64,000 nt of DNA from an uncultured Gammaproteobacteria bacterium (GTDB lineage Bacteria > Patescibacteriota > Patescibacteriia > Magasanikbacterales > UBA922), in the NCBI GenBank assembly GCA_964550845.1, contig CAZKAD010000001.1:21342-85341 (forward strand), given 5' to 3'. Under the pieces are notes generated by a model. The model was not told the origin of the DNA, did no database searches, and saw only the letters and a program-made list of their open reading frames with translations. Positions 32,062 to 50,271 of this stretch are shown here, one piece after another. Each line of letters opens with the position of its first letter. Within the stretch, counting starts at the first letter, position 1. Both the position numbers and the translations under genes were made by a program.

Positions 32062-32165
32062 ATTACTTCGTCTTCCGAGAAACATTTTGGCGTTTCTCGG
32101 ATTACTTCGTCTTCCGAGAAACATTTTGGCGTTTCTCGGATTATATCGTCTTCCGAGAAACATTT
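32062..32165. repeat. 39-bp tandem repeat, about 2.7 copies, each with a 9-bp-stem hairpin
   Basis: attacttcgtcttccgagaaacattttggcgtttctcgg, with stem ccgagaaac/gtttctcgg. Confidence 0.92.
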
Positions 32166-32257: not shown

Positions 32258-33235
32258 ATGAGTTCGAAGTTAACAAGGCAAGATCTGATTGAACGACTCA
32301 AAAATGTTGGTTATACTTCATTAAGCAGATTAAGAAAGGGAGAACTTGAACAGCTTTATCTGAAGATGCAAAAACAAGAGGAGAAGAAAGAAGAGAAAAA
32401 CGTGACGTTCCGAGAAACTGTAAGTATGAACATTATTACACAAAATATATCGACTCCCTCGAGTATATCAAATCATTCGACTTCCTCGAACATAACAACT
32501 CTTTCGGAACGTCCTTCGAATCCTTCAACACGCTTACCCACATCAGAACGTTTAACAACCAGACGAAATAAAAAGCCTGATCCAGTGTATTTTGAAGAAG
32601 AATTTGAGAAACTTCGAAATACAGAGATATCAAAATATACCAAAATTGTTCAGCTTGGGCAACCAGGAAAAGAAGGCACTACTTATTTAGTGATGGATCC
32701 AGTTCGTCCTGAAAAACGATATGCAATGAAATGTTTCCGGAGAACAAAATCAGAAAATCGCCTTGCCGAAGAGGCTCATTATCAATGGATTGTTTCAAAA
32801 GCTGGGTTAGCACCAAAAGTATATGAATTTAATCCGAGAGAAAAGTACATTTTAATGGAAGCTCTTGATCGAACACTCCTTAATATTCTTCATGAAAATC
32901 ATGGAAAATTTCCCGAATCACTTCAACAGAAAGTGATTGATTTGTACAAACAACTTGACGAAACTGGTGTAGCAGTCAATGATGGAAATCCAAGGAATAT
33001 TATGGAGAAAAATGGGAAACTTTATATGATTGATTATGGACTAGCTAAATTTTCGAATTCTTCTTCATTTCGCAAGTATCCAACACCAAATATGACGTTA
33101 CTTCCAAATGCCCTCTTTTTCTATATCAAAGAGAAGTTCGATACACGCGATTGGACATTACTTCGAAAATTGGTTCCAGCTGAAGCACTTCGAGAATACG
33201 ATCGATCATATTTACTCAAACATCAAAAGAGATAA
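32258..33235 (+). CDS. HeH/SAP-like motif plus atypical protein kinase
   Basis: N-terminus LTRQDLIERLKNVGYTSLSRLRKGELEQLYLKM. Kinase GKEGTTYLV, YAMKCF, NDGNPRNIM, MIDYGLAKF. Confidence 0.7.
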   Translation: MSSKLTRQDLIERLKNVGYTSLSRLRKGELEQLYLKMQKQEEKKEEKNVTFRETVSMNIITQNISTPSSISNHSTSSNITTLSERPSNPSTRLPTSERLTTRRNKKPDPVYFEEEFEKLRNTEISKYTKIVQLGQPGKEGTTYLVMDPVRPEKRYAMKCFRRTKSENRLAEEAHYQWIVSKAGLAPKVYEFNPREKYILMEALDRTLLNILHENHGKFPESLQQKVIDLYKQLDETGVAVNDGNPRNIMEKNGKLYMIDYGLAKFSNSSSFRKYPTPNMTLLPNALFFYIKEKFDTRDWTLLRKLVPAEALREYDRSYLLKHQKR

Positions 33236-33275: not shown

Positions 33276-33283
33276 AAAATTGA
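33276..33283 (+). promoter_or_regulatory. AAAATTGA promoter-like octamer
   Basis: 27 nt upstream of ATG 33310. A duplicated copy lies at 33234..33241. Confidence 0.6.
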
Positions 33284-33309
33284 TCTCCCATTTTATTCTA
33301 CAATTCAAA

Positions 33310-34415
33310 ATGAACTTCCTCATTACACACGGTCCTTGTCTTGATGGTGAAACTTGCGCTTTGTTTCTCAAACAATGGGCAGATGAGCAAAAAGAAACAT
33401 TGCAAACGGTATTTTGTTTCGCTGGGCAACTTTCAGTTGATTTGATTAAGAGGAAAATGCCTGAGAATACATGTCGAATCTTTATTTGCGATTTGACTGT
33501 GAATCAAGAAACACTCGAATATCTTAATAATCTGAACAAAGAAGTCTGGATCATCGATCATCATCGATCATCATCGATCATCATCAAAAACTTTCCAATG
33601 TTCCTGAAAAAATTACTTATCTTCATCGAGATCGTTGTGCGGCGTGGATTGTTTGGGAAAAATTTCGATCGAATTCTGAAGCAGTCACTCCAATTCTTCG
33701 GGGAGTTCAGCCTGAACTTCTTCAATATATCGACGAACAAGACCGAGGTCTTCATCACCGTCCTTATTTGAAAGAAATCATTTCTGCAGTTCATTTTGAG
33801 AAGAAGAGGATTGGACTTGAAAGAGTGTTTCAAGAATTTTCTGTCGATCGATATATTCAAATCGGAACGATTCTTGCTGAATATCGAAAAACCCAGGTCG
33901 ATGAGATGATTAAATATGGCTACAAACGAAAGTTTAATTGGAAGGGAAAAGAATATAACGTCTTGTTGATGAGTGGAGATCGAACTCTCCGAAGTGAGGG
34001 TCTCGAAGAATCAAAGGCTGACATTACCATGTTTTACACTTACGATGCAGCAACGAATGAATTTTGGGTTGCTTGTCGAAGTCAAGAACTTGATCTTTTG
34101 CCTATCATTTCAAATATCACCTGGTGTAGCGGGAATGAATTTCGAAAAGGTGGAGGGCATCCTAAAGCTTGCGGTTTTACCGTCAATCAAGCAACCACCT
34201 TCGAATTCATCACAATGATGGAAGGATCGGTGTCGCCTGCAAGTTATCATCAACCGAGTCAGACAGGATATAAAATTGAGCTACAGGGACTTGTCCCGCA
34301 AAAGTTTTGCTTTCCAATTTTCTTCCATAGTTGGATTAACGATTTGCTCAAAGCAATTGAGAAATTTGATCAAGTAATTTCTGAAGGGACTTCGAGGGTT
34401 GACGAAATTTATTAA
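33310..34415 (+). pseudogene. DHH/DHHA1 phosphoesterase disrupted by a frameshift in a 3x 10-bp repeat
   Basis: Motif I THGPCLDGETCA and motif III IIDHH lie in frame 1. Continuation ...QKLSNVPEKITYLHRDRCAAW... and DHHA1 GGGHPKACGF lie in the frame of ORF 33768..34415. The junction is at GATCATCATC x3. Confidence 0.75.
33556..33585 (+). repeat. 10-bp tandem repeat x3 (GATCATCATC, encodes DHH)
   Basis: Exact copies at 33556, 33566, 33576. Confidence 0.95.
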
Positions 34416-34525
34416 ACGTCTCTTCGAGACTAGTTAAACATCGAGACGATTGGTTAAACGTTCCGGAGGAACTGATTAAACGTTCCGGAGGAACTGATTA
34501 AACATTCCGGAGGAACTGATTAAAA
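34412..34525 (+). repeat. TTAAAC-hairpin repeat array (22-bp unit, 5 copies)
   Basis: TTAAAC at 34412, 34434, 34454, 34476, 34498. Units ttaaacgttccggaggaactga. Confidence 0.95.
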
Positions 34526-34528
34526 ATC

Positions 34529-34558
34529 TTTTTTCTTTCCTCGAAAGGAAAGAAAAAA
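34529..34558. terminator. hairpin between convergent genes (12-bp stem)
   Basis: ttttttctttcc-tcgaaa-ggaaagaaaaaa. Confidence 0.6.
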
Positions 34559-34567
34559 TAATGAAAA

Positions 34568-34798
34568 TTATCCCGAGACATTCAAAATGACTCTCAATTG
34601 GTGCCATCGTCGAGAACACTCTTCTTGATCTTTGATATTTTCAAAAAGATAAGAGTCTCCATTGGCTACAGTTCGAATTGTAATTTGACATTCATTATTA
34701 GTGTCTTCTTTCGACACTTTGATAATCTTATGAGAATTTAAAAGCTGGCCGTCGAAAACGAAAAATTTATCACTCCAAATACTTGACTTATCCGACAT
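34568..34798 (-). CDS. hypothetical protein (76 aa)
   Basis: ORF with minus-strand AAAATTGA 42 nt upstream. Confidence 0.5.
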   Translation of the reverse strand: MSDKSSIWSDKFFVFDGQLLNSHKIIKVSKEDTNNECQITIRTVANGDSYLFENIKDQEECSRRWHQLRVILNVSG

Positions 34799-34839
34799 TG
34801 ATAATTAGGATAATTATATTTTTCGTCTGGTAAGAAAAT

Positions 34840-34847
34840 TCAATTTT
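34840..34847 (-). promoter_or_regulatory. AAAATTGA promoter-like octamer (minus strand)
   Basis: 42 nt upstream of minus-strand ATG 34798. Confidence 0.6.
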
Positions 34848-34864
34848 CATACTCAATCGAGAGG

Positions 34865-35998
34865 TTAATTTACCCTCAATCCGTATCGAGCTGCAAAGAC
34901 GTTTTCCAACCGCTTCTCTTCTTTTACGGTCATAAATTGTCCATTTTGAAAATAAACCAACCAGAGAGAAGCTTCATTGTACGACAAAGTTTGAATCATT
35001 TGATCAGGAAAGAAATTAATGATTAATTCCTCTCTCAGTCGATAATCCTTGACCAATTTGTCGGCTAATGTCTTCAATGACGATCCGAGTGAAGAAGGAA
35101 AAGATGAGATTAGTCCGTCTTCTTTCAGGCAAGCATAATCAATCATTGCAATCTCTTGTGGAGCTGGTCCATCAAAACATAATGCCAAATCAAAGTCAAT
35201 GATTGCAAATCCAGATCCTGAACGAACCAAGTTTCGAATGTAGAGATCATTGTGAACAATACCAATATGATGAAGTTTTTCAACCAAGGCCACAATCTTC
35301 TTTTGCTCGGCAGATGAAAATTTTCGAGCATGATCAAACGGGGTACATTGGGCAAGAATCGCCAAACCATATTGAACCTGACCAACTTGACAAACTTGAT
35401 AAGCGAGTAATTTCGCTCCAACTCCTGCCTTCCCAGCTCGCTGGAGCATTGTCAGCTCCCATTTAAATGCATCAAATCCTCGTTCACGAAGATCGGTCAG
35501 TTTGAATACAACATTTTTACCTCCATAAACTCCCTTGAAGACAACTCCTCCAGATCCTCTTCCAATCTCATCACCTTGTCCAAAATCTGTAAGACATTTA
35601 TCCATTGATGAATACATCTTGACCTGAATTTTTTGTCCAATTTCTTGGTAATCTTCAAGAGGAGAAGTTAGCAAAGCTTCTTCAGCTTCGGTACATTCAT
35701 TAATTGAAATATTACCTCCGGTTATAAGTCGATGCAAGAGTTCTGCAACTACATCAGCTTTATTTCCTGCAATTGGAGGATTGGCTTGTTTAGCAAGTTC
35801 TTGAATCTTTTTCGCTGAAGCATGAATAATTTCGATTGCACTTGGAGTCTGCAAAGCCCGATTTCTCTTTAAGAGCCGTTCGCGAATTTCACTAATTGAA
35901 TCTGACGAATAAAACGAAACCGGATATGCCAACTTCATATTCAACTCGAGGAGAGCCTTTTTTGTCTCGGCTCGGCGGATTTTTGCTTCAAGATCCAT
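34865..35998 (-). CDS. HeH/SAP-like motifs plus protein kinase
   Basis: AKKIQELAKQANPPIAGNKADVVAELLHRL. Kinase IGRGSGGVVFKG, VVFKL, IVHNDLYIRNLV, IIDFDLA. Confidence 0.8.
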   Translation of the reverse strand: MDLEAKIRRAETKKALLELNMKLAYPVSFYSSDSISEIRERLLKRNRALQTPSAIEIIHASAKKIQELAKQANPPIAGNKADVVAELLHRLITGGNISINECTEAEEALLTSPLEDYQEIGQKIQVKMYSSMDKCLTDFGQGDEIGRGSGGVVFKGVYGGKNVVFKLTDLRERGFDAFKWELTMLQRAGKAGVGAKLLAYQVCQVGQVQYGLAILAQCTPFDHARKFSSAEQKKIVALVEKLHHIGIVHNDLYIRNLVRSGSGFAIIDFDLALCFDGPAPQEIAMIDYACLKEDGLISSFPSSLGSSLKTLADKLVKDYRLREELIINFFPDQMIQTLSYNEASLWLVYFQNGQFMTVKEEKRLENVFAARYGLRVN

Positions 35999-36038: not shown

Positions 36039-36581
36039 ATGGATGTTCTTGAACTTTTGTCTGATTGGTGGAACGAAAAAGGTGGATATTTTGTGATTGG
36101 GTTTTTTATTTTGTTTATTTTTTGGAGATTACTTTTTCATCGGCGGAGTCTTCAAACTTCCTTTTCCGATTACCTCGACAAACAAACCGGGATCCAACGG
36201 AAATATCAACGGGGAAGTCAACCAGAAAGAGAGGCTCGAAGATTACTTGAAGAAATGTTTCAACGACCCTTTCCGTGTAGGAGACCAGACTTTTTGAAAA
36301 ATCCAGCCACTGGACGCAATCTTGAATGTGATATGTTAAATGATGAGCTGAAATTGTGTGTTGAATATCAAGGACGTCAACATGCCGTTCATACGCCTCA
36401 TTTTCATACCGCAGGACAATTTGAAGATCAGCAAGCACGAGATATTTTGAAGAAACGATTATTGAAGGAAAATGGATACAATTTAATTGAAATTCCTCAT
36501 ACGGTAAAAGGTAAGGATTTATATCCGTTCCTGAAGGTGAATTTAGCTCATTATCCTGAGTATTCGGGGTATTATACATAA
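36039..36581 (+). CDS. TM-anchored PD-(D/E)xK-like nuclease-fold protein
   Basis: GYFVIGFFILFIFWRLLF, then NLECDM...LCVEYQGRQH...ARDILKKRLLKENGYNLIEIPH. Fold call is tentative. Confidence 0.5.
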   Translation: MDVLELLSDWWNEKGGYFVIGFFILFIFWRLLFHRRSLQTSFSDYLDKQTGIQRKYQRGSQPEREARRLLEEMFQRPFPCRRPDFLKNPATGRNLECDMLNDELKLCVEYQGRQHAVHTPHFHTAGQFEDQQARDILKKRLLKENGYNLIEIPHTVKGKDLYPFLKVNLAHYPEYSGYYT

Positions 36582-36595
36582 GATGATAAGGATGC

Positions 36596-36603
36596 AAAAT
36601 TGA
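36596..36603 (+). promoter_or_regulatory. AAAATTGA promoter-like octamer
   Basis: 58 nt upstream of the recombinase ATG 36661. Confidence 0.6.
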
Positions 36604-36660
36604 AAATAATTTTGGCATTTACAAGCGAAACATGGAACGCAACTCATTTCGAAACTTGAA

Positions 36661-37644
36661 ATGACATATCGAAAAGCAATCATTTATCGACGTGTGTCGA
36701 CTGCAGCCCAGCTTAATGGAAATGCATTGTTGACACAACAATTGCAATGTGAAGAATGGATTCAAGCTAGATATCCCGAATTAGAAATCAAAACTCGAAC
36801 TGACGTCGGAAGTGGCTGGAATAAAAATAAACGAGAGCCATATCAATTGCTTGAGAAAATGCAGAATATAGTTGATTCATGCACGAAGACATTGATTGTC
36901 ATTTATTGTATCGATCGATTCCTTCGAGATGTTAAAACGGCAGAAGAAATCTTACCTAAACTCAAGGAGAATAAAAATCGAATCGTGTTTTTGCTTGAAA
37001 ATCTTGACTATCACAATTTTTCTGGCAAGGATGTCTACTTGAAAATTATTAGGGGAGTCGAATCTGCTCAAACAGAATCAGATGTTAAATCCAAACGCAT
37101 GAAAGATGCCTGGAAAACAAAATGTATGCTGGAAAACAGCCCTGAACTTGAAGATGAGGAATGGAAACTTGAATATGATTCAGAATCTGAATCTGATGAT
37201 GAAAACAAAAGTGCTTTGAATCGAAGGAAAATTGAACCTGTAAAAGTTCAAGAAACTAAACTCGTTCAAGCTCCTGCTTATCGTTTGGCTAATCGACCTC
37301 AAGCGTCGATTCAACCTCCTCAAGCGTCGATTCAACCTCCTCAAGCGTCGATTTATCAATGGCCTCCCCAATTATTGATTGACAATCACTTCGACGATCC
37401 TCTCTTTTCAAAGAAAGAGAAAATTAAAAGGTTAATTCAGACTTGTTCAGAAGGACGTTATACTATCAAATCATTGAATCAACATCTTCTTCAACTTTCT
37501 TCAGTCGCCTTTTCTCTTCAAGTCGAAGAAGTTCCAACCTCGTGGGATGGAATGGCAACTTTACTAAATCTTTTTGAGATCTGCTGGGTGCCAGAAATTC
37601 CGAAAGGAGAATGGACTGCCGAGAAAGCAAAGGCTTTTAATTAA
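36661..37644 (+). CDS. serine recombinase (resolvase/invertase catalytic domain)
   Basis: AIIYRRVSTAAQ (nucleophile Ser), IYCIDRFLRD. Internal 3x PQASIQP repeat. Confidence 0.75.
   Translation: MTYRKAIIYRRVSTAAQLNGNALLTQQLQCEEWIQARYPELEIKTRTDVGSGWNKNKREPYQLLEKMQNIVDSCTKTLIVIYCIDRFLRDVKTAEEILPKLKENKNRIVFLLENLDYHNFSGKDVYLKIIRGVESAQTESDVKSKRMKDAWKTKCMLENSPELEDEEWKLEYDSESESDDENKSALNRRKIEPVKVQETKLVQAPAYRLANRPQASIQPPQASIQPPQASIYQWPPQLLIDNHFDDPLFSKKEKIKRLIQTCSEGRYTIKSLNQHLLQLSSVAFSLQVEEVPTSWDGMATLLNLFEICWVPEIPKGEWTAEKAKAFN
37297..37356 (+). repeat. 21-bp coding tandem repeat, about 2.8 copies (PQASIQP)
   Basis: cctcaagcgtcgattcaacct at 37297, 37318, 37339. Confidence 0.9.
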
Positions 37645-37684: not shown

Positions 37685-37710
37685 TTTCTTGACTCTTCGG
37701 AGTCAAGAAA
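37685..37710 (+). terminator. gene-end hairpin (11-bp stem, TTCG loop)
   Basis: tttcttgactc-ttcg-gagtcaagaaa. Confidence 0.6.
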
Positions 37711-37756: not shown

Positions 37757-39193
37757 ATGAGTATTCGAGCTGGCTGCCGAATTCCATCAAAAGGGTTATT
37801 AATTAATTTAGATACCAAAGAGATTCTTAATTTCTCAGATCATCTTAACTTGAACATAGGAGGCATCTATGATTACTCACCTCAACGGAAATGCGGATCT
37901 CTTGATTTCCCGTCCGATGATGAAATAAAAGGATACAATATGGTTTGTTACAATGGCAAACTTGATAAGTTTGCCACAATGACTAGAAAATATATTTATT
38001 TCTGGGATCTTTCCACAATTAGAGAAAAGGTTCCTTATCAGAGATGCAAACGTCCATCCTCACCATGTGTGAATTTCGGATATCTTGATAATGAATGTGT
38101 AATTGTGCTTGAAGACGAATCTTACAAAGATATTTATACCTTATACACTTACAAAACAAATTTTGTTGGACAAAAGCTTGAATTAATTGCCAAGATTCCA
38201 ACCGAATGTGATAATATTGTGACAGATGGAAATCAAATTATAGTCGGTGACGAACATTCTTCGGTTTACTCAATTTTTGAATTTGATGAAAAACAGAGAT
38301 TGATATTTAGTGACGTCATTCAAGTTGAACAACCTGACCATTTAATAACTAGTATTTGTACGCCGAAGTTTCAGGTATTTCTATCAAATTTTCAAATGCA
38401 GATTCGCTGTAAAATCGGTAACTTTTCTACTCGAACAAGTAGCACCGTCCAAGATGCTGATCCAACTACATTATATGTTATTCGAACATATAATGTAGTT
38501 GGATCAGCATCTTCAATAATCCATTTCAACTCGTTCAATCACGATAATTTCGACTTTATTATCATCGCCAATGATTACGGTTTTGACGACGAATCTAATT
38601 TCGAGGATATTGATGAATTTTGGGATAATTATACTCCTTTGAATATCTATCGAATAAATCTCCCAAATAAAGAGATTATTCAAATCGACGAAGAAGTCGA
38701 TTACTGGGAAAATAATGATCAATTTCGAGCAGCTAGACAAATAGTTCATTATCCGGCTCATGATTTTTTAATCCTCCAAAGAGATGTTATCGAAATATGG
38801 AATCTTTTTCCTATGTTTAAGCTGTGGGCATCTGATCAAATGTTCGATAAATGGGAAAAGATTGCAATTACCAATAAACTCGAAGCAACTGGAATCACCC
38901 ATGGTGTTCAAAAAACAACCATCTTTCTTGCACCATGCATTTTTGCAAATCTGATTGCATCAGGGTTATTTGAATTAAACAAGGAGGAAATTTTAACTTC
39001 CTTTTTACAAAAAGATTTGTATGATCCTCGTTTGTTAATGACGATTTGGTCTTTTGTTTACGAGCCAAGATTGGCAAGTGGAGATTACCAGATTAATGAA
39101 ATCTCTTCAGATGATGATTCCTTAAATGAAGATGAAGATTCGTTCTTCCGTCTACGATCCATGATTGTCGAATGGAGATTACCAGATCAATAA
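37757..39193 (+). CDS. LYDPR-box family protein, type I (large), with acidic C-terminal extension
   Basis: ILTSFLQKDLYDPRLLMTIWSFVY. N-terminal region resembles ORF 460..1422. Confidence 0.8.
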   Translation: MSIRAGCRIPSKGLLINLDTKEILNFSDHLNLNIGGIYDYSPQRKCGSLDFPSDDEIKGYNMVCYNGKLDKFATMTRKYIYFWDLSTIREKVPYQRCKRPSSPCVNFGYLDNECVIVLEDESYKDIYTLYTYKTNFVGQKLELIAKIPTECDNIVTDGNQIIVGDEHSSVYSIFEFDEKQRLIFSDVIQVEQPDHLITSICTPKFQVFLSNFQMQIRCKIGNFSTRTSSTVQDADPTTLYVIRTYNVVGSASSIIHFNSFNHDNFDFIIIANDYGFDDESNFEDIDEFWDNYTPLNIYRINLPNKEIIQIDEEVDYWENNDQFRAARQIVHYPAHDFLILQRDVIEIWNLFPMFKLWASDQMFDKWEKIAITNKLEATGITHGVQKTTIFLAPCIFANLIASGLFELNKEEILTSFLQKDLYDPRLLMTIWSFVYEPRLASGDYQINEISSDDDSLNEDEDSFFRLRSMIVEWRLPDQ

Positions 39194-39319
39194 AATCTCT
39201 TTAAATGCCGATTCTCTAAACGATAATGAAGATTGACATCATCTTTTAGTATTATTTATCTCTCGAGATAGATAAAATGATTTTATTATGCGTTCTCAAA
39301 AGTAAAGACGTTCCATCCC

Positions 39320-39982
39320 ATGAATATCGATTTGTTTGACAAATTTCCTTTATCATGTCTAAAATTTAGCGGATCAATTCGGGCCCGTTATGAAAACTTT
39401 GATCAATTTGTTCAGCTTTGTTCCATTATTGCTGAGAAAAAACAGTATCACACTATACATTTCAATCAAGAAGATGCCCGAAAAACTAATTTTACTGATA
39501 TTTCAATTCAATATCATTCGATAAAGAGGATTAATGAAGTTTGTTATTCATCTGAGATGAACGTATTAAAAATAAAGAAAACAATTTTAGGCATTCGATA
39601 CATCAACATCGATAATCTTGATGTACTGCAAAAATTACTTCAGTCACCTACGTTGTATCCTGGAGCTACATTGGACATTGATATTGATTTAGATTATGAA
39701 TCAAGCAACGAAACGAAAAATATAAGCACTAAAAATGAATTGGCTGTATTGGACATGATGATTCAGTCAGAATCACCATTGAGGAATCTTGATATTAAAT
39801 ATTATGTTGGCAATCTTGGTGGAATGAGAGAATTGAATATCAGTAGCTTACTCCGATTGATGCAGTTTGTTTGCTGCGGGTTGAATCTACGTGATTATTC
39901 TACATGGTCTTCCTTTCTAACTCGAGAATTATATGATCCGAGAATACTTAGTTTAATTGCGAAATTTGCATTTTGCATGTAA
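39320..39982 (+). CDS. LYDPR-box family protein, type II
   Basis: ESPLRNL...LMQFVCCGLN...WSSFLTRELYDPRILSLIAKFAF. Confidence 0.8.
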   Translation: MNIDLFDKFPLSCLKFSGSIRARYENFDQFVQLCSIIAEKKQYHTIHFNQEDARKTNFTDISIQYHSIKRINEVCYSSEMNVLKIKKTILGIRYINIDNLDVLQKLLQSPTLYPGATLDIDIDLDYESSNETKNISTKNELAVLDMMIQSESPLRNLDIKYYVGNLGGMRELNISSLLRLMQFVCCGLNLRDYSTWSSFLTRELYDPRILSLIAKFAFCM

Positions 39983-39988
39983 AATTGA
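39981..39988 (+). promoter_or_regulatory. AAAATTGA promoter-like octamer
   Basis: 43 nt upstream of ATG 40031. Confidence 0.65.
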
Positions 39989-40030
39989 TTTCTCTTCGAG
40001 ATAAAAACAATTTATATTATAATTATAGTA

Positions 40031-40693
40031 ATGTTTTCAAACTTACATGAAATAAAATCAGAATTAGTTGGTACAATTAAAACTATTTCTCGATCAGGTG
40101 AAGAGTTTGTCAAACTTTGCGATCAACTTCAACATCTAAATCGTCATACTATTTATTTTTCGACTAATTTTCGATGGTATGCTAATGTTGATGAAAAATT
40201 GGAAGATTTTGAGGACTACGATAGCATTTTTTCTCTTACGATCATTGAATTTGGGACTCAAAATCAATTTGAATTTGAAGCTAAAACTGCCATCTTCAGA
40301 AATAAATGTGTTGAACAAATTCCCCGAATTAACCATATTGATCTCTGGCATGCAGAAGAAATGAATTATCAACTTAATTGCCCTGGTGCAACAGTCGAAC
40401 ATCATTATCGTTCGGGACATAAGAAGGAGATTCATAAAAATTATTTCATACTGCTTCATGATCTCCTCAAATCAGAATCGATGTTGCGCAATTTGAACAA
40501 TGTGGTAACCACGAAAAATGCCATTCGAATCACAGAACTTCTCTCTTTAATGAAAATCATTTGTCTTGGGCTTGTAGATGAGAGCGATTTGAATTCTTTT
40601 TTAACTCGAGAATTGTATGATCCTCGATTGTTAATTACGATTGCCGAATTTACAGATCAACATTCGATTTTAATCAGCGTCAGCCCTTTTTGA
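40031..40693 (+). CDS. LYDPR-box family protein, type II
   Basis: ESMLRNL...LMKIICLGL...NSFLTRELYDPRLLITIAEF. Confidence 0.8.
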   Translation: MFSNLHEIKSELVGTIKTISRSGEEFVKLCDQLQHLNRHTIYFSTNFRWYANVDEKLEDFEDYDSIFSLTIIEFGTQNQFEFEAKTAIFRNKCVEQIPRINHIDLWHAEEMNYQLNCPGATVEHHYRSGHKKEIHKNYFILLHDLLKSESMLRNLNNVVTTKNAIRITELLSLMKIICLGLVDESDLNSFLTRELYDPRLLITIAEFTDQHSILISVSPF

Positions 40694-40710
40694 TGTTTAA
40701 AAACAAAAAT

Positions 40711-40737
40711 GATTTCTCTCTTCTCGAAGAGAGGAAA
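40711..40737 (+). repeat. family-associated intergenic palindrome GATTTCTCTCTTCTCGAAGAGAGGAAA
   Basis: Near-identical copies at about 41457..41485, 42244..42273 and 42901..42929, each just upstream of a type II start codon. Confidence 0.85.
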
Positions 40738-40749
40738 AATAACAATCTC

Positions 40750-41460
40750 ATGTTATCTTCTCTAAAAGAATCGGGACTTGAACTCGTCGGAACATTAAAA
40801 ATTGTTTCACGCAGTTGTGATGATTTTGTCAAACTGTGCCAACAATTTGACAATCTTTATTTTCATCGCCTCTCTTTTTCGGACAATTTCGAATCATATG
40901 TACAAGAGGACAGTAGATTGATCGATTTTGAAGATCAAGACGAAATCTTTGCTCTCACGGTCGTTCAGTTCTTATCAGAATCGGAATATAAATTTAAGGT
41001 AAATAGTTATATTTTCGGAAATGAATGTAATTATCAGATTCCGAATGTTTCTGAAGTTGAACTTTGGGAAGAAAAAGAAATTGATTGTGACTTTGATTGC
41101 CCGAATGCGAGAGTTATTCACAATTATTTTCCTCGATTTGGATTGGAAGTAAATTCTGGAAAAATCTCAAGAAGTCAGGAGGTTTGTAAAAATTATTTAG
41201 TGATGCTTCAACGACTACTCACTTCGGAATCGAGATTGAGAAACTTAGACAATGTAGTGGACCGTTTTAATCATCGAATAAGAGAATTACTGCAATTAAT
41301 GAGACTTATTTGTCTTGGGCTGAATGAAGAGAATTCAAATTCGTCCTTTCGGGACTCGAATATTTTGTCTACCTTTTTGGTCAAAGATTTGTATGATCCT
41401 CGATTGCTGATTCTTATTGCACAATTTGTTGACCAATATTCAATTGTCTTTCAAAACTGA
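40750..41460 (+). CDS. LYDPR-box family protein, type II
   Basis: ESRLRNL...LMRLICLGL...STFLVKDLYDPRLLILIAQF. Start moved to ATG 40750 downstream of the palindrome. Confidence 0.8.
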   Translation: MLSSLKESGLELVGTLKIVSRSCDDFVKLCQQFDNLYFHRLSFSDNFESYVQEDSRLIDFEDQDEIFALTVVQFLSESEYKFKVNSYIFGNECNYQIPNVSEVELWEEKEIDCDFDCPNARVIHNYFPRFGLEVNSGKISRSQEVCKNYLVMLQRLLTSESRLRNLDNVVDRFNHRIRELLQLMRLICLGLNEENSNSSFRDSNILSTFLVKDLYDPRLLILIAQFVDQYSIVFQN

Positions 41461-41500
41461 TTTCTCTCTTCTCGAAGAGAGGAAAATTATTATTTCAGTT

Positions 41501-42187
41501 ATGTTCCCTGCTCTCAGCGAATTAAATCCCGAATTAATCGGAACATTTAAAATCGTCTCCCGATCAAGTGAAGATTTTATTAAACTTTGTCACAAGCTGC
41601 AGAATCAATCTCATCATATAATCTCCTTTTCGGAGAATTTTCAATCATGTATTGAAGATGACGAAAGATTGATCAATTTTGAAAACCAAAATGAAATTTT
41701 CGCCCTTACGGTGCTTGAATTCAGATCAGAAAATCAATTTCAATTAGATGTTGAGACCTTTATTTTCCGTCAGCAATGCGATTCACAAATTCCTGGTGTT
41801 TCCACGATTGAACTTTGGAGTGAAATGGAAATTAATTACCAATTTGATTGTCCCGGTGCAACGGTGGTTCATCGTTACTTTCCTTCACGTCAGAAAAATA
41901 GAATGACTGGTAAAACTACATTGATACCGCAAAGTAAAAAGTATTTCCAAATGTTGCAAAGGTTTCTTCTTTCTGAGTCGCCTTTCCGTAACTTGAATAA
42001 TGTAATTCCTCCTTATGATAGTGTTTCAGTCTCAGAACTCCTTCATTTAATGAGAATTACTTGTCTCGGTCTTGTGGATGATGGGATAATGAACTACTTT
42101 TTAACTCGTGAATTGTACGATCCTCGATTGCTATATTTGATTGCGAAGTTTGGAGATACTTATTCAATTGTGGGGGAATTGGAGTAA
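41501..42187 (+). CDS. LYDPR-box family protein, type II
   Basis: ESPFRNL...LMRITCLGL...NYFLTRELYDPRLLYLIAKF. Start at ATG 41501. Confidence 0.8.
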   Translation: MFPALSELNPELIGTFKIVSRSSEDFIKLCHKLQNQSHHIISFSENFQSCIEDDERLINFENQNEIFALTVLEFRSENQFQLDVETFIFRQQCDSQIPGVSTIELWSEMEINYQFDCPGATVVHRYFPSRQKNRMTGKTTLIPQSKKYFQMLQRFLLSESPFRNLNNVIPPYDSVSVSELLHLMRITCLGLVDDGIMNYFLTRELYDPRLLYLIAKFGDTYSIVGELE

Positions 42188-42245
42188 TCAGAGCAATAGA
42201 AGTAATCGGAGTAATCGGAGTAATCGGAGTAATCAGAGTAAAACT
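42183..42245 (+). repeat. 9-bp tandem repeat, 7 copies (AGTAATCRG)
   Basis: Starts at the stop codon of gene 41501..42187. Confidence 0.85.
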
Positions 42246-42277
42246 GATTTTCTCTCTTCTCGAAGAGAGGAAAAGTA

Positions 42278-42904
42278 ATGTCTTTTTTCAAAGATATAGA
42301 TCCATCAGAGTTTACATCTCTTACAGCAGAGTTAAAGTTTAGTACATTTGAAAGATTAGTTCATTTCATTCAACAAAGTAAAACTGAAAACTCTTATATC
42401 ACCTTAACTTTTAACCGGAGTATCACTGATACATTTGAGGCTAATGCTGAAGTTTGTAGATATTCAGATTCATCTTTCGTCATTCATATACATGTCGAAT
42501 TGAAAGAAGGTCAATCCTTAACTATTCCAAATATAGACGAAGTAAACATCGATCTTAAATATTTATCCACTAAACCCGACATTGATTTTCCGCAAGCAAT
42601 AGTAAAATTACTTTGTGATAGTTCAAGTAGAAATCAACTTGAACCAAAAGCTTTATCCATTTTACTTAATTCAACTTCAAAGCTAAGAAATCTTCCTTTC
42701 TTCTATACTTCATTACATGATAATAATGATGAAGAGCTCAAACTCAACTTTTTGATTCGATTGATGAGACTGGTTTGTTGTGGAATGAGCGAAGAGAATT
42801 CAAACATTTGGTCTACCTTTCTCACAAAAGAATTGTATGATCCTCGATTAATGATTCTGATTGCGCGATTCATCGATCAATGTTCAGATGTCTTACAAAA
42901 CTGA
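42278..42904 (+). CDS. LYDPR-box family protein, type II
   Basis: TSKLRNL...LMRLVCCGM...WSTFLTKELYDPRLMILIARF. Confidence 0.8.
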   Translation: MSFFKDIDPSEFTSLTAELKFSTFERLVHFIQQSKTENSYITLTFNRSITDTFEANAEVCRYSDSSFVIHIHVELKEGQSLTIPNIDEVNIDLKYLSTKPDIDFPQAIVKLLCDSSSRNQLEPKALSILLNSTSKLRNLPFFYTSLHDNNDEELKLNFLIRLMRLVCCGMSEENSNIWSTFLTKELYDPRLMILIARFIDQCSDVLQN

Positions 42905-42936
42905 TTTCCTCTCTTTTCGAAGAGAGGAAAGTAATA

Positions 42937-43571
42937 ATGTCACTCATTAAAGATGTCGATCTTTCAGAGATTATATCTTTGAAAATGGAACTTAAATTTG
43001 GTACCCCTGAAAAATTAATCCGTTTCATTCAACAAAATAAAGGCCAAAATTTTCAATGCAAATTGACCTTTAGCCGTAGTAAAACTGACACATTTGAGGC
43101 TGCTGTCGAAGTTCGCAAACTTTCGAAAATTTTCGTTGTTGATATGCATGTCGAGATGAAAGAAGATCAATCTATAACCATTCCGGATATAGATGAAATC
43201 AACATTAATTTTTCATATTTATCCGAAAAACCAGATATCGATTGCCCGGGAGCAAAAGTATATTTATACTGCGGTGGTTCAATTACTGATCAAATCGAGA
43301 TAGAAACTTTAACTATTTTACTTAATTCAACTTCAAAGCTGAGAAATCTTCCTTTCTTTTGCGTTCCATGGAACAGTATTGACAGAGAAATCTTCCTTTC
43401 TTTTGCGTTCCATGGAACAGTATTGACAGAGAGCTCAAACTCAACTTTCTGATTCGATTGATGAGACTTGTTTGTTGTGGTGTTTGTGAAGAGGATAATG
43501 TATGGCAATTCTTTTTGACTCAAGAATTGTATGATCCGAGATTACTTAGTGGCATTGCAGCGTTTAATTAA
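42937..43571 (+). pseudogene. LYDPR-box family member, type II, frameshifted by a 44-bp tandem duplication
   Basis: Reads ...TSKLRNLPFFCVPWNSIDRE, then duplicated unit 43341..43384 / 43385..43428. Removing one copy restores ...LKLNFLIRLMRLVCCGVCEEDNVWQFFLTQELYDPRLLSGIAAFN, with stop at 43569..43571. Confidence 0.75.
43341..43428 (+). repeat. 44-bp exact tandem duplication
   Basis: gagaaatcttcctttcttttgcgttccatggaacagtattgaca x2. Confidence 0.95.
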
Positions 43572-43620
43572 TTTAGAGAGTCTCGAAGAGACGTTTAACT
43601 AATTCAGAGAGTCAAGAGAA
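43562..43620 (-). repeat. TTAAAC-hairpin repeat, reverse orientation (about 31-bp unit, 2 copies)
   Basis: gtttaaYtaattYagagagtc twice, with gtctc-gaa-gagac stem. Confidence 0.7.
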
Positions 43621-43719
43621 AGTAGCTAATTCAAAATATTCATCTCCTTTCGAAGAGATAAAAAGTGATTAATTCTTTTGCGTATAAAAGAATTAAAATA
43701 AAAGAATTAAAATTAAAAG

Positions 43720-44403
43720 ATGGACAAACCTTTTAACCAGTCTCAAGAGACGTTTAATCCAATTGAGATTTTTCGTATTGAATCTGACACTTTGATTAAG
43801 AAGCTGGGAAAAGGTCCACGTGGAAATATATTGAATGAATATTTTGAAGTGCCTAAAAAATTTACTCAAGGAATGTTGTACTTCTATTTTTCGCATCATG
43901 TATTTGACCACTTTGAAGAAAAGCTCGACACAAAAATTATCTTCCCTCGAAATCAGATAAAAAATTTTCAACTCTTTCTTAAGCAAAATTACCCGGATAC
44001 TTCATCATTTCGATTTCTCTATTATTTACATCAAATACATCCAGAACATTGTATTATTGGTATCGAAAATGGACAAGGTGTCCATCATTTTTTCAAACAT
44101 GACTATGGATTGTACGGAGATATGTATGAAAACTACTATCATTTTCTCGAAATCATTGTTCGATTGATTGGTGAAAAAGTTGATCATGGTTATGATCCAC
44201 TTGGAGAATTGGTTGCCAATGGATTGATCGACAATGGACAATTTTATGCCTTTCTCACAAAAGAATTGTATGATCCTCGTGTTTTAATTATGATTCATCA
44301 ATTTGCCTTCGATCCAAATAAAACTCGATATTTGTCTGCTTCCGGAGAAGTTATGGAAGAAGAAATTAAACAGCTTCAACAAGATGAAAATAATGAAGAT
44401 TAA
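43720..44403 (+). CDS. LYDPR-box family protein, type III
   Basis: FNPIEIFRI...YFYFS...NYPDT...GEKVDHGYDPLGELVANGL...FLTKELYDPRVLIMIHQFAFDP. Confidence 0.8.
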   Translation: MDKPFNQSQETFNPIEIFRIESDTLIKKLGKGPRGNILNEYFEVPKKFTQGMLYFYFSHHVFDHFEEKLDTKIIFPRNQIKNFQLFLKQNYPDTSSFRFLYYLHQIHPEHCIIGIENGQGVHHFFKHDYGLYGDMYENYYHFLEIIVRLIGEKVDHGYDPLGELVANGLIDNGQFYAFLTKELYDPRVLIMIHQFAFDPNKTRYLSASGEVMEEEIKQLQQDENNED

Positions 44404-44487
44404 ATTCTTTTATCTCCTCTCGGGGAGATATAAAAAATGAATTTCCGACGAAACTCAAAGGTATAAAAGAAAGATAGAATAAAAGAA

Positions 44488-45189
44488 ATGACTCAATTTA
44501 CACCAATTGATATCTTTCGAATTGATGCCCAGATTCTAAGTGAGAAAATTGATAATATTAAAAAATATGTCCAGCTCGATGAAAAATTTTCTCGAGGTAT
44601 ATTATACTTTTATTTTTCATGGGAAATAGAAATGGTAAAAGTTTCTCAAAAAGACTGCTTTCACAAGTTCAAGGAATTTCTTCGGCAAAATTATCCAGAT
44701 ACTTTTCCTTTCCATTTTCTCTATCATCTTCATCGGAAAGCAAACAGATCTTACACTTTAGCCGAAAATAACCGAGGAGTTATATATACATATATACATG
44801 ATTATGGTTTGTATGGGAATGAAGTTAGTAATCGTGATAGCTTTTTTGAAACTACTATTCGAACATTTGGTGAAAAAGTTGATCATGGTTATGATCCCCT
44901 TGGCGAATTAGTTGCTTCAGGATTAAACAGTGAAGGCATTTTTCATGCCTTTCTCACAAAAGAATTGTATGATCCTCGTGTTTTGATTTTGATTCATCGA
45001 TTCGCCTTTGATCCAGATAAAGAAAAATTCTACAATGTATATGGAAAGATTGTCGAAGAAGACCTCGACGAGAACGATTCGATGTCATTTGACATAGCAT
45101 CAGACGAAGAGATATTCGATGAAAGTGATGAGGAGATATTCGATGAAAGTGACGATGAAAGTGACGATGAAAGTGATGAAGAGAATTAA
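44488..45189 (+). CDS. LYDPR-box family protein, type III, acidic repeat tail
   Basis: Same architecture, FLTKELYDPRVLILIHRFAFDP, with tail SDEEIFDESDEEIFDESDDESDDE. Confidence 0.8.
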   Translation: MTQFTPIDIFRIDAQILSEKIDNIKKYVQLDEKFSRGILYFYFSWEIEMVKVSQKDCFHKFKEFLRQNYPDTFPFHFLYHLHRKANRSYTLAENNRGVIYTYIHDYGLYGNEVSNRDSFFETTIRTFGEKVDHGYDPLGELVASGLNSEGIFHAFLTKELYDPRVLILIHRFAFDPDKEKFYNVYGKIVEEDLDENDSMSFDIASDEEIFDESDEEIFDESDDESDDESDEEN

Positions 45190-45248
45190 TTATGTTTGTT
45201 TCCTCAAGAGGAAGCAAAAAATTTTAGTTTGTAATCAACACCCGTTGT

Positions 45249-45992
45249 TTAGTCTTCATTATCACTATTATCACTATTCGCCATGGCCAAAATAGCCGCG
45301 TACTCTGGACCAGGGGCGAGATGCTCATCACGATAATTATTAAAATCTTCTTCAAATTCCTCACCAAAGGCATCAAAATCTTTGATTTTGTTCGGATCGA
45401 AGGCAAATTGATGAATCAAAATCAGAATTCTCGGGTCATACAATTCTCGAGTCAAAAATGTATGAAAACAACTATTTCCTTCCGAATCATTCAGTCCTGA
45501 AGCAACCAATTCTCCAAGTGGATCGTAGCCGTGATCAACTTTTTCACCGAGCAAGCGAACAAAAATTTCAAGAAGATGATGATGACAGTCTACTGTATCT
45601 CCATACATTCCATAGTCATGAGTGTAATATCTCGTAATTCCTTGATTATTTTCAAGTAAAATAAGACAATATTTTGGATTATCACCATGAAGACGTATCA
45701 AATAACGAAATGCTGAAGTATCAGGGTAATTCTGTTGAAGAAAAAGTTTAAAATTTTCATACTGGCTTTGAGTGAAGACTATTTCACTATTTTCGGATTT
45801 GTGTTTGCTACGCTTAAATATATGATGAGAAAAATAAAAGTACAATGTCCCTTGAGAAATCTTTTTTGATAATTCGAAATGTTCATTTAGCGCATTACCA
45901 CGATGACATTTCCCCAGCTTTTCAATCAAGATTTGCGCGTCAATTCGAAAGATTTCAATTGGATTAAATGTCGCAAGGGACTGGTTAAACAT
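45249..45992 (-). CDS. LYDPR-box family protein, type III
   Basis: FNPIEIFRI...GEKVDHGYDPLGELVASGL...FLTRELYDPRILILIHQFAFDP. Start at ATG 45992, because the GTG at 46055 lies in hairpin 46051..46078. Confidence 0.8.
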   Translation of the reverse strand: MFNQSLATFNPIEIFRIDAQILIEKLGKCHRGNALNEHFELSKKISQGTLYFYFSHHIFKRSKHKSENSEIVFTQSQYENFKLFLQQNYPDTSAFRYLIRLHGDNPKYCLILLENNQGITRYYTHDYGMYGDTVDCHHHLLEIFVRLLGEKVDHGYDPLGELVASGLNDSEGNSCFHTFLTRELYDPRILILIHQFAFDPNKIKDFDAFGEEFEEDFNNYRDEHLAPGPEYAAILAMANSDNSDNED

Positions 45993-46050
45993 CTCTTTAG
46001 TTTGACTATCTAATGATATCTTTACAATTTGATCAATGGACAAAGGTAAA

Positions 46051-46078
46051 ATCACTTTTCCTCTTGAGGAAAAGTGAT
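46051..46078 (-). terminator. gene-end hairpin
   Basis: atcacttttcctc-tt-gaggaaaagtgat. Confidence 0.55.
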
Positions 46079-46082: not shown

Positions 46083-46448
46083 TTATTGCTTAGCTCCTTC
46101 TTCGAAACGCTTATTGAGTTCTTCGAAACGCTTATTGAGTTCTTCGAAACGCTCATTGAGTTCTTCGAAACGCTTATTGAGTTCTTCGAAACGTGTGTCC
46201 TTTGAATTTATTTGCAAACTTCCTTTGAATTTTGTTAAAGCATTTCGAAATGAGTCTGGATCATCTATATTGAACATATACGAAGTCTCCGAACAATTTG
46301 ACGAAATGGTACCTCGAAATAAATTCAAATGTACAATCACATTTCTGCTATGAATTGAAACAGTTTCACGATTTGGAGATATCCGGATAATTGGACTTTC
46401 CAATTTAAGTTCGTTGGCAACTATTTCTGCCATCTCTAAAGCAGACAT
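46083..46448 (-). CDS. hypothetical protein with C-terminal RFEELNK heptad repeats
   Basis: Paralogue of 46547..46891 (MAEIVANELKLESPII / MAEMIAKELKLANPII). About 4.6 x 21-bp repeat. Confidence 0.6.
   Translation of the reverse strand: MSALEMAEIVANELKLESPIIRISPNRETVSIHSRNVIVHLNLFRGTISSNCSETSYMFNIDDPDSFRNALTKFKGSLQINSKDTRFEELNKRFEELNERFEELNKRFEELNKRFEEGAKQ
46100..46196 (-). repeat. 21-bp coding tandem repeat, about 4.6 copies (RFEELNK)
   Basis: cttcgaaacgcttattgagtt at 46100, 46121, 46142, 46163, 46184. Confidence 0.9.
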
Positions 46449-46891: not shown

Positions 46892-46907
46892 TCGCCGAAC
46901 AAGAAAA

Positions 46908-46915
46908 TCAATTTT
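46908..46915 (-). promoter_or_regulatory. AAAATTGA promoter-like octamer (minus strand)
   Basis: 17 nt upstream of minus-strand ATG 46891. Confidence 0.5.
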
Positions 46916-46916
46916 G

Positions 46917-46972
46917 GAATCGAATGAATTGAATGAATTAAATGAATTGAATGAATTGAATGAATTGAATTC
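46917..46972. repeat. 9-bp satellite (GAATGAATT-like), block 1
   Basis: gaatcgaatgaattgaatgaattaaatgaattgaatgaattgaatgaattgaattc. Confidence 0.9.
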
Positions 46973-50239: not shown

Positions 50240-50271
50240 TGCTTTTATTTCGAGAAAGAAAAAGGAAGATT

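Follow-up and report, generated by a model that had tools for sequence, protein, structure and literature searches.

A giant-virus serine recombinase found beside ELYDPR-box genes, and its possible role in their mobility

The 64-kb stretch of DNA analyzed here (the window) is a piece of a giant-virus (NCLDV) genome. It carries a gene for a 327-aa serine recombinase, and at every locus where this recombinase subfamily was found (the clade of the window, L021, L016, and L017) the immediate neighbour of the recombinase is a member of the fast-evolving ELYDPR-box family. These loci span three deep recombinase lineages, and two of them are clearly independent as evidence for linkage. The adjacency supports a genetic link between the recombinase and the ELYDPR family and suggests that the recombinase has a role in moving or reshuffling ELYDPR-box genes. 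A 180-aa nuclease gene lies immediately upstream, and it is unrelated in function to the recombinase. The sequence-only reading of this region had correctly placed the two genes directly 5' of the first array gene (37757-39193), and it had proposed recombinase-mediated amplification or shuffling of cassettes. The association of recombinase paralogues with family clusters was indeed found elsewhere, while the evidence drawn from the palindromes did not hold.

Multigene families of giant viruses expand and contract quickly, and the usual explanation is unequal homologous recombination (the "genomic accordion"). A site-specific recombinase that is under selection and accompanies one such family in deeply diverged viruses would offer a testable candidate for an enzyme that drives this plasticity. 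If the link is coincidental, the annotation still gains a Vsr-type nuclease of 180 aa, a non-IS607 recombinase, and the assignment of the palindrome as a transcript-end hairpin. Our best explanation, held tentatively and at somewhat less than an even chance, is a functionally unrelated nuclease next to a resident island recombinase that mobilizes ELYDPR modules, with the family growing mainly by ordinary duplication. The features are listed in Table 1.

Table 1. Features of the nuclease-recombinase-array region (positions in the window)
Feature	Position	Strand	Basis or remark
Membrane-anchored Vsr-like PD-(D/E)xK nuclease gene, 180 aa (predicted)	36039..36581	+	conserved giant-virus gene
N-terminal hydrophobic segment Y17-F33, then HRR; predicted signal-anchor/TM helix	36087..36137	+	sequence, homologues, AF2
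Nuclease domain, residues about 60-170	36216..36548	+	invariant residues
Imperfect hairpin after nuclease stop codon	36593..36617	+	sequence; overlaps AAAATTGA
Promoter-like octamer AAAATTGA, mimivirus-type	36596-36603	+	65 nt upstream of recombinase ATG
Serine recombinase gene, 327 aa, apparently derived from large-serine-recombinase type	36661..37644	+	ORF, Pfam PF00239, TP901-1 match, dN/dS
Catalytic (resolvase) domain, residues 6-153	36676..37119	+	Pfam PF00239
Nucleophile S13	36697-36699	+	within recombinase catalytic domain
Acidic low-complexity linker, residues 161-237	37141..37371	+	pLDDT about 30-45
Conserved C-terminal domain, residues 238-327, 90 aa	37372..37641	+	clade alignment, profile comparisons
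Perfect 24-nt palindrome over recombinase stop codon	37629..37652	.	100% conserved in L001-L005
Second hairpin, 11-nt arms, 4-nt loop, between recombinase and first array gene	37685..37710	.	followed by AAAATTGA at 37714
Array of 10 ELYDPR-box genes (9 on +, last on -)	37757..46055	.	ORFs; synteny in L006 and L010
Representative inter-unit junction: promoter-like AAAAATGA, then palindrome TTTCTCTCTTC-TC-GAAGAGAGGAA	40704..40741	.	sequence

The upstream gene had been described as a membrane-anchored protein with a PD-(D/E)xK-like signature, and both features are confirmed. The segments LECDM, VEYQGRQH, and NLIEIPH are found at residues 95-99, 108-115, and 148-154, respectively. The anchor segment is hydrophobic in all homologues, where G21 is invariant, and it forms part of a long helix (residues 3-54) in the AF2 model (pLDDT 81.5). 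Nine residues (D84, E96, D98, E109, Q114, H115, H123, D135, and K138) are invariant in seven homologues down to 39% identity. The fold is restriction-endonuclease-like and is closest to Vsr. At the sequence level nothing in PDB is matched, and among PHROG families the homing/HNH-associated nucleases are matched with E-values from 3e-13 to 4e-9. Vsr, DUF559-like proteins, the catalytic domain of the homing endonuclease I-Bth0305I, and RAP domains share the motif pattern D...E.D...E..G..H with the 180-aa protein. Unlike these, the 180-aa protein has an N-terminal membrane anchor and is encoded by a stand-alone giant-virus gene outside of any intron or intein. The gene is under strong purifying selection (dN/dS 0.05-0.09). 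Its product, a membrane-anchored Vsr-type nuclease of predicted activity, is widespread in giant viruses. An antisense ORF (36115-36618) is treated as spurious; it matches no family and lies opposite the strongly constrained gene. No Rfam family is found between 35.5 and 47.2 kb, and a PADLOC scan gave zero matches.

The nuclease and the recombinase do not form one module. L011, L012, L013, and L015 have no recombinase beside the nuclease, and in L021 five genes lie between the two. Nuclease homologues are present on 24 IMG/VR giant-virus contigs, none of which (0/24) has a recombinase within 6 kb; the position of the nuclease beside the recombinase is therefore incidental. In L012 the nuclease is followed by the capping-enzyme gene (on the minus strand) and by homologues of 50961-51533 and 51570-52166, with neither recombinase nor array. 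Since the nuclease adjoins the capping-enzyme gene in this distant relative, the recombinase and the array constitute a lineage-specific island. The nuclease would then be a vertically inherited, strongly constrained gene that merely borders a variable island reaching to the capping-enzyme gene. In L021 the same interval contains the five genes, a WD40-ELYDPR gene, the recombinase, and two ELYDPR genes before the capping-enzyme gene (minus strand).

The recombinase had been recognized from the motifs IIYRRVSTAAQ and IDRFLRD, which are found at residues 7-17 and 84-90. Its identity as a serine recombinase is confirmed by a match to PF00239 (E 1.4e-14, 54.8 bits against a cutoff of 23.3). As had been noted, no MerR-type HTH precedes the catalytic domain, which begins at residue 6. 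The catalytic residues R11, S13, D85, R86, and R89 are present. Among 16 aligned sequences S13, R86, and R89 do not vary, R11 hardly varies, and most of the sequences have D85. The catalytic residues are retained across recombinases of just 23-60% identity. The best PDB match is the catalytic domain of TP901-1 integrase and the best PHROG match is the integrase family phrog_95. The catalytic domain is followed by a disordered linker of ~77 residues, in which a 21-nt tandem repeat (37297-37359) encodes PQASIQ; the copy number of this repeat differs among relatives.

The C-terminal domain is nearly invariant in the clade and is also present in P0033, P0034, and P0181. Pfam finds nothing in this domain alone, including PF07508, and its profile has no significant match among PDB sequences. 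By hhalign the domain matches giant-virus-like small recombinases (92% probability, E 7.5e-7), and these in turn match bona fide Recombinase domains (95%, E 4.9e-8); the direct profile comparison with the Recombinase domain is weak (P 0.015). The AF2 model is poor here (pLDDT 52 for the whole recombinase and about 50 for this domain). On these profile matches, the domain is a putative DNA-binding module derived from the initial portion of the Recombinase domain of large serine recombinases, and the protein appears to descend from the large-serine-recombinase lineage.

Among large serine recombinases, TP901-1 and phiC31 are phage integrases, TnpX and TndX are transposases, and SpoIVCA and XisF are developmental excisases. 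They share with the 327-aa protein the N-terminal catalytic domain with R-x-S and D-R-x-x-R, and the putative C-terminal DNA-binding module appears to be related to the first part of their PF07508 domain via intermediates. Unlike these enzymes, the recombinase of the window is short, at only 327 aa, and has no coiled coil and no zinc ribbon; no Zn_ribbon_recom match is found, and the Recombinase-like segment is immediately followed by the end of the protein at residue 327. Also, the GxxPYGY segment at which this domain starts in related recombinases is replaced by the acidic, repeat-containing linker, and the host is a eukaryotic giant virus. In the small resolvase/invertase group (gamma-delta, Tn3, Hin, and Gin), a C-terminal HTH_7-type domain directly follows helix E. 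The recombinase does not fit that layout of about 180-200 aa with HTH_7, considering its length, its long linker, and the absence of an HTH_7 match.

Small serine recombinases of 250-300 aa from AT-rich giant-virus-like metagenomes (P0041, P0042, P0044, P0054, and P0183, among others) have the same layout, with a conserved Cys30, and share helix E..I..fI..C(R) and the IA..LN....W(T/S) motif with the 327-aa protein. Unlike the window clade, they retain GxxPYGY, and the identity is only 22-28%. At the P0183 locus (L022), unlike at the loci of the subfamily found in the window, no ELYDPR gene was found nearby. No functional studies of these small recombinases were found in the literature, and the present family did not turn up in literature searches on the assemblies or on giant-virus serine recombinases. 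A tblastn search of a phage collection with the recombinase gave no match. IMG/VR scans with the recombinase clade, the ELYDPR family alignment, P0183, and P0042 returned no relatives. The 327-aa protein could represent a novel compact serine recombinase encoded by a eukaryotic virus.

The earlier suggestion that the gene is a remnant of a mobile element is contradicted by its conservation. The dN/dS ratio of the recombinase is about 0.2-0.3 (0.19-0.24 for the catalytic and 0.17-0.20 for the C-terminal part) and, with its catalytic residues kept, the gene is not decaying. It appears to be functional and maintained by purifying selection, and its product would be an active enzyme. Positive selection on the catalytic domain was considered and rejected: a dN/dS of about 0.2 together with saturated dS points to old alleles that have been exchanged by recombination. 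The alleles of the recombinase are mosaic between genomes that are near-identical elsewhere. When the window is compared with L021, identity is 60-65% for core genes and 23% for the recombinases, and the ELYDPR family genes retain the C-terminal box alone. The recombinase evolves about three times faster than the core genes.

In the preferred explanation, a module consisting of a recombinase and an ELYDPR gene most likely either entered this lineage or originated within it. The 327-aa enzyme would be the resident recombinase of the island, genetically linked to the ELYDPR-box multigene family, and would integrate, excise, or relocate modules of this kind in a site-specific manner. Growth of the ELYDPR family itself would be due mainly to ordinary tandem duplication and to unequal recombination at the junctions, where promoter and hairpin are repeated. 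Activity of the enzyme, its action on this locus, and the sites that it uses are points that we infer.

It is less likely, while still a serious alternative, that the adjacency is a coincidence within a hypervariable island, the recombinase being a stand-alone selfish or domesticated gene whose function is separate from the ELYDPR family. The content of the interval between the nuclease and the capping enzyme differs among L012, L021, and the window. ELYDPR genes are abundant and also dispersed, e.g., at 331-1422 and 62976-63821, far from any recombinase, and the probability of adjacency by chance is not negligible (roughly 0.1 for L017 alone). The loci of the window, L021, and L016 may moreover represent a single ancestral locus, and the junction palindromes are generic. 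Against coincidence, the deeply diverged paralogue in L017 (26-28% identity) adjoins the sole family member in an unrelated neighbourhood of 15.9 kb. In L021 the recombinase is flanked on both sides by family genes, with which it has the junction element and even the first codons ATGGATTTT in common. In L016 the upstream neighbour has been swapped and the family gene directly after the recombinase has been retained. One genome may hold two such recombinase-ELYDPR modules, as L018, an L017-type contig, and L021 come from the same sample with coverages of 16.7 and 17.1. A scan of GTDB genomes recovered the L017-type contig alone, and one metagenome scan with the ELYDPR family alignment gave a single 2.2-kb contig with two family genes and an uninformative flank.

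The array units had been said to share a 27-nt palindrome. An exact copy of 26 nt does exist, at 4 of about 10 junctions (40712, 41460, 42248, and 42905), and degenerate copies are found at 43630 and 44400; it is not a property of every unit. Further copies of the junction element begin at 41452, 42240, and 42897. Nor is the palindrome specific to the array. Of the 29 perfect palindromes in the window, 22 lie between genes, for the most part 17-56 nt beyond the end of a gene, and T/C-rich palindromes of a similar kind follow unrelated genes in the window, L017, and L021. The array palindrome is thus a variant of the hairpins found behind most genes genome-wide and is best read as an ordinary transcript-end hairpin, in agreement with the hairpin rule for transcript 3' ends in Mimiviridae (PMC4402537). 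As a member of this genome-wide class, it does not point specifically to a recombination site. The palindrome over the recombinase stop codon is most simply a 3'-end hairpin as well. A 20-nt likeness to the array palindrome inside the recombinase gene (37398-37417) was judged to be due to chance.

Structural heterogeneity, which the sequence-only reading had proposed to look for, does exist in the array. Whole units have been gained or lost with breakpoints inside the inter-unit palindromes, and the unit indel that distinguishes the window from L010 has its breakpoint in the junction element shown in Table 1. Homologous recombination at the repeated junctions accounts for these indels equally well. 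Because the palindromes are generic and homologous recombination fits the indels, cassette shuffling is put forward here only as a conceivable mechanism.

Integrons (IntI/attC), the shufflon (Rci), and invertases (Gin, Cin, and Hin) likewise have a recombinase at the edge of a co-oriented array whose units are separated by imperfect palindromes, and here, as in those systems, one unit (the last of the array) is inverted. Integrons and shufflons use tyrosine recombinases, and Gin and Hin, at about 190 aa, carry their HTH at the C-terminus. It is improbable that the recombinase acts in such a manner on the inter-unit palindromes to duplicate, delete, invert, and capture ELYDPR cassettes. The junctions, with 11-12-nt arms and a central dinucleotide, do resemble crossover sites of serine recombinases, the breakpoints lie within palindromes in two lineages, and the L021 recombinase is itself flanked by the same junction element. 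However, the units here are paralogues, and the same palindrome type stands behind most genes, non-family genes included, which is the known hairpin rule of Mimiviridae (PMC4402537). Recombination sites specific to cassette boundaries, as integrons have, are not seen, since the palindromes are gene-end hairpins of the whole genome. The exact palindrome is confined to the four junctions, and the window recombinase is flanked by different palindromes. The window and L010 have colinear arrays, and no inversion or rearrangement beyond unit indels is found in comparison with L010 or L006. We likewise give only a slender chance to the broader proposal that a recombinase derived from large serine recombinases captures, relocates, duplicates, and deletes ELYDPR-box host-interaction genes, with the junction elements, or sites within them, as crossovers. 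Such a cassette system, if true, would be a counterpart of integrons in a eukaryotic virus, with a serine recombinase as its basis, and could explain the expansion of multigene families in giant viruses.

A role in genome maintenance, in which the recombinase resolves replication concatemers or dimers or isomerizes the genome and the array is irrelevant, is quite improbable. Purifying selection on the recombinase, its single copy in the window (it is the sole protein of its subfamily seen on the 259-kb contig), and its early-type promoter motif would agree with such a role. A core replication function is, however, expected to be widespread and conserved, whereas L012 and the sequenced neighbourhoods of more distant relatives lack the recombinase, which evolves about threefold faster than core genes and has just 2 representatives scoring <1e-30 in a search of 1.84 billion proteins.

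A degraded IS607-type transposase is very improbable, and identity with IS607 TnpA is effectively refuted: the best NCBIfam match is indeed an IS607 transposase (E 6.8e-8), but it scores 32 bits against a cutoff of 110 and spans only profile positions 54-132 (the catalytic core), and the dN/dS ratio, the intact catalytic residues, and a position conserved across viruses with 60-65% identical core genes all argue against decay. The 327-aa protein shares with IS607 TnpA the serine-recombinase catalytic core, the absence of terminal inverted repeats, and the occurrence in giant viruses, in which IS607 elements are known (PMC6188088). IS607 TnpA is defined by an N-terminal DNA-binding domain and is normally paired with tnpB (PMC6188088). 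The present protein, by contrast, has its catalytic domain at the N-terminus and the DNA-binding-like, Recombinase-like domain at the C-terminus. The earlier observation that no TnpB partner exists is upheld by the absence of an OrfB_IS605-type Pfam match from 28 scanned ORFs, a set that took in both neighbours of the recombinase and left out the array units at 40031-44403 and 45249-46055. Terminal inverted repeats are likewise absent, both around the recombinase gene and around the gene plus array.

The octamer AAAATTGA upstream of the recombinase occurs 40 times against 25.9 expected, and it is located 40-65 nt upstream of many ATGs. The recombinase thus probably has its own early-type promoter, as judged from this motif. 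In the host virus both the mimivirus-type promoter motif and the hairpin rule are seen.

The window derives from a giant virus (Nucleocytoviricota) and has a G+C content of about 36%. In addition to the genes in the table, it has genes for the small subunit of ribonucleotide reductase, for several protein kinases, and for a kinesin; a Hint (intein-type) domain at residues 115-190 interrupts the kinesin motor gene (16275-18800, minus strand). The recombinase protein has its record on a 259,314-bp NCBI contig. In the window, the octamer AAAATTGA, a mimivirus-type early promoter motif, is enriched (40 occurrences vs 25.9 expected) and is found 40-65 nt upstream of many start codons. It often overlaps the 3' arm of the preceding gene's hairpin.

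Features of the window and their synonymous divergence (dS) from related contigs
Feature	Position	Strand	dS (contig compared)
Promoter octamer, examples	1447, 2762, 29447, 32215, 36596, 37714, 54001, 57696
Family-B DNA polymerase gene	2824-5781
Upstream kinase-like gene	32258-33235		0.08 (L001)
Adjacent kinase	34865-35998		0.45 (L001)
Nuclease ORF, 180 aa	36039-36581	plus	0.075 (L001)
Recombinase ORF, 327 aa, directly upstream of first array gene	36661-37644	plus	catalytic part 1.9, C-terminal domain 0.39 (L001)
First array gene, directly 3' of recombinase gene	37757-39193		0.19 (L003)
Capping enzyme gene, trifunctional type	47117-50275	minus
RNA polymerase Rpb1 gene	54051-56987

The sequence-only reading had identified a nuclease-like gene and a serine recombinase gene upstream of the array of ELYDPR-box genes. 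Both identifications are correct, and each ORF is present where it had been placed, with every peptide motif quoted. Within a variable island, the recombinase shows a consistent link with the ELYDPR-box family. In the distant relative L012 (capping enzyme 38% and nuclease 40% identical), the nuclease gene lies beside the capping enzyme gene, followed by homologues of window genes 50961-51533 and 51570-52166. This is the window order minus everything at 36.6 to 47.1 kb, so recombinase and array occupy a lineage-specific island. In L021, whose core genes are 60-65% identical to those of the window, the island holds, in order, five other genes, a WD40 protein, a recombinase (255 aa, 23% identical), two more family genes, and the capping enzyme. 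The WD40 protein ends in the ELYDPR C-terminal box; with the box fused to a beta-propeller, the family looks like a set of variable N-terminal domains joined to a shared C-terminal adaptor box. The recombinase of L016 is 86% identical to that of L021; here the first family unit is absent, the junction falls in the intergenic element that is repeated between units, and another gene stands upstream. The L017 recombinase is only 26-28% identical to the others and its neighbourhood is unrelated. The sole family gene in its 15.9 kb is the immediate downstream neighbour of the recombinase, convergent and 85 nt away. L018, a contig of the L017 type, shares its sample of origin with L021 and has almost equal coverage, implying that one virus may carry two recombinase-ELYDPR modules.

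Thus every known member of the recombinase subfamily adjoins an ELYDPR-box gene. At L022, the locus of a more distant recombinase, no family gene is found nearby. The converse does not hold: outside the array, window ELYDPR genes 331-1422 (plus) and 62976-63821 (minus), at distances of about 35 kb and 25 kb from it, have no recombinase nearby. Since just two loci are clearly independent and the family is abundant, the association is suggestive, not proven. The best explanation, with somewhat less than an even chance, is that the recombinase serves a mobile or rearranging module made up of itself and ELYDPR-box genes, which it would mobilise or rearrange; ordinary duplication would be the main source of array growth. 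Coincidental co-residence of these genes in a plastic island agrees with the family genes that stand apart from any recombinase, and the family gene kept as neighbour throughout the subfamily speaks against it; it is rather unlikely.

The earlier proposal saw in a recombinase beside an array whose units share a palindrome either cassette amplification or shuffling or, equally, a mobile-element remnant. The linkage is supported, and the shuffling is kept only as an alternative. Allowing arms of 10 nt or more and a loop of at most 8 nt, a scan of the window found 29 perfect palindromes, of which 22 lie in the intergenic 9.7% of the sequence, mostly 17-56 nt beyond a gene 3' end. Mimiviridae transcripts end, with polyadenylation, at hairpin-forming palindromes (PMC4402537), and the window palindromes behave as described there. 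The T/C-rich arm design of the array palindrome recurs in several outside the array (34529, 52058, 14720, 5810, and 7090, among others) and beside non-family genes in L017 and L021. Only four junctions have the array palindrome in its exact form, and two further copies are degenerate. A promoter-like AAAA(A/C)TGA precedes the exact form, some 45 nt ahead of the following ATG. Between relatives, whole units have been gained or lost with breaks inside junction elements: window 39971-40705 is missing from L010, and unit 1 of L021 is missing from L016. In L021, the same element flanks the recombinase gene itself. Such breaks fit a site-specific mechanism, but equally unequal homologous recombination between the array's only well-conserved sequences. 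Apart from these unit indels, the array is colinear between the window and L010. Direct shuffling by the recombinase at the junction palindromes, as candidate sites, is quite improbable. As a separate observation, the hairpin TCCGAGAAACATTTTGGCGTTTCTCGGA occurs twice at 32074-32140, the copies 39 nt apart, and varies in copy number, as a 39-nt indel in L001 indicates.

The recombinase is best read, from its sequence, as a truncated, rearranged large serine recombinase (LSR) without zinc ribbon or coiled coil. In PHROG it matches an integrase family best, and among solved structures the TP901-1 integrase catalytic domain. It carries R11, S13, D85, R86, and R89, of which S13, R86, and R89 are invariant in a 16-protein alignment (20-63% identity). 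In the window clade, the linker after helix E combines an acidic stretch with a 21-nt tandem repeat that encodes PQASIQ and differs in copy number among relatives. The 90-aa C-terminal domain is nearly invariant in the window clade and common to P0033, P0034, and P0181, three related recombinases. Among 1.84 billion representative proteins, only two matches fall below 1e-30, both belonging to the recombinase's own family; the next best (1e-21 to 1e-12) are proteins of 250-360 aa. The wider relatives are small recombinases, coded by AT-rich sequence, that carry a GxxPYGY motif and match Pfam Recombinase weakly. The C-terminal domain matches the C-terminal halves of these proteins (92% probability, E 7.5e-7), and these, for their part, match the first part of genuine LSR Recombinase domains (95%, E 4.9e-8). 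Direct comparison with the Recombinase domain is weak (P 0.015), though in the expected register, that of the IA..LN..GI....W motif. The AlphaFold model is poor (pLDDT 52), so this assignment rests on sequence profiles. A genome-maintenance role for the recombinase is very improbable. That it is an IS607 remnant is scarcely credible, and the sequence-only reading set it apart from IS607 correctly. Two defining features were looked for and neither was found: the Pfam Resolvase match begins at residue 6 (6-153, E 1.4e-14), leaving no room for an N-terminal HTH, and no TnpB Pfam match occurs in the 28 ORFs scanned, both neighbours of the recombinase among them. The NCBIfam IS607 model covers the catalytic core only (32 bits vs a cutoff of 110). 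As noted before, there are no terminal inverted repeats around recombinase or island.

The recombinase gene is alive, its dN/dS being 0.19-0.24 over the catalytic part and 0.17-0.20 over the C-terminal part; it evolves fast and is probably LSR-derived. In the comparison of the window with L001, dS is very uneven along the region (table; the first array gene was compared with L003, a contig of the same L001-type virus). The nucleotide profile agrees, with 44-81% identity at 36618-37373 and 95-100% in much of the flanks. Comparison with L006 gives the opposite picture, with 81% identity for the recombinase and 66% for the first array gene. This divergence reflects old alleles reshuffled by recombination between co-circulating strains; positive selection or decay was rejected in favour of this explanation. 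A second patch of very low identity to L001 (9-75%, large gaps at 34231-34530) is found at 34131-34920 and is another recombinant or mosaic segment. It spans the 3' end of the DHHA1 ORF and a small ORF, 34568-34798, in sequence otherwise 95-100% identical. The window carries the DHH/DHHA1 phosphoesterase gene (33280-34415) as two overlapping ORFs of 163 and 215 aa; L001, L006, and L007 each have it undivided, at 345-380 aa.

The PD-(D/E)xK assignment of the nuclease is correct; more precisely, it belongs to the Vsr-like branch. D84, E96, D98, E109, Q114, H115, H123, D135, and K138 do not vary in homologues as distant as 39% identity, and the gene is strongly constrained (dN/dS 0.05-0.09). The proposed membrane anchor corresponds to a hydrophobic stretch, Y17-F33, followed by HRR, and its hydrophobic character is kept in all homologues. 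No recombinase adjoins the nuclease gene in L011, L012, L013, or L015, and five genes separate the two in L021. Homologues (33-57% identity) are carried by 24 giant-virus contigs in IMG/VR; within 6 kb of them, no contig shows a gene for a serine recombinase, a capping enzyme, or an ELYDPR protein. The nuclease gene is thus widespread in giant viruses and borders the recombinase gene only incidentally, and it is dropped as a partner.

Several other repeats are found in and beside the array. The coding region of the first array gene contains a perfect 63-nt palindrome (38451-38513; 29-nt arms, 5-nt loop), a 51-nt, 17-codon insertion missing from L010 and L006. In L003, CA/TG is swapped in both arms, so that perfect complementarity is retained. 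Its form suggests an inverted duplication that arose by template switching and is kept perfect by conversion or selection. In array unit 42880-43452, a 44-nt exact tandem duplication (43341-43428) shifts the reading frame, so the unit is either an assembly artefact or a recently formed pseudogene. Removal of one copy restores a 197-aa ORF ending FLTQELYDPRLLSGIAAFN, and the L010 counterpart is an intact 196-aa gene. Five copies of a 21-nt tandem repeat (46098-46202) encode a heptad-like repeat of EELNKRF type in ORF 46083-46448. A 9-nt repeat of GAATGAATT type (46903-47081) lies in the spacer that separates ORF 46547-46891 from the capping enzyme gene's 3' end.
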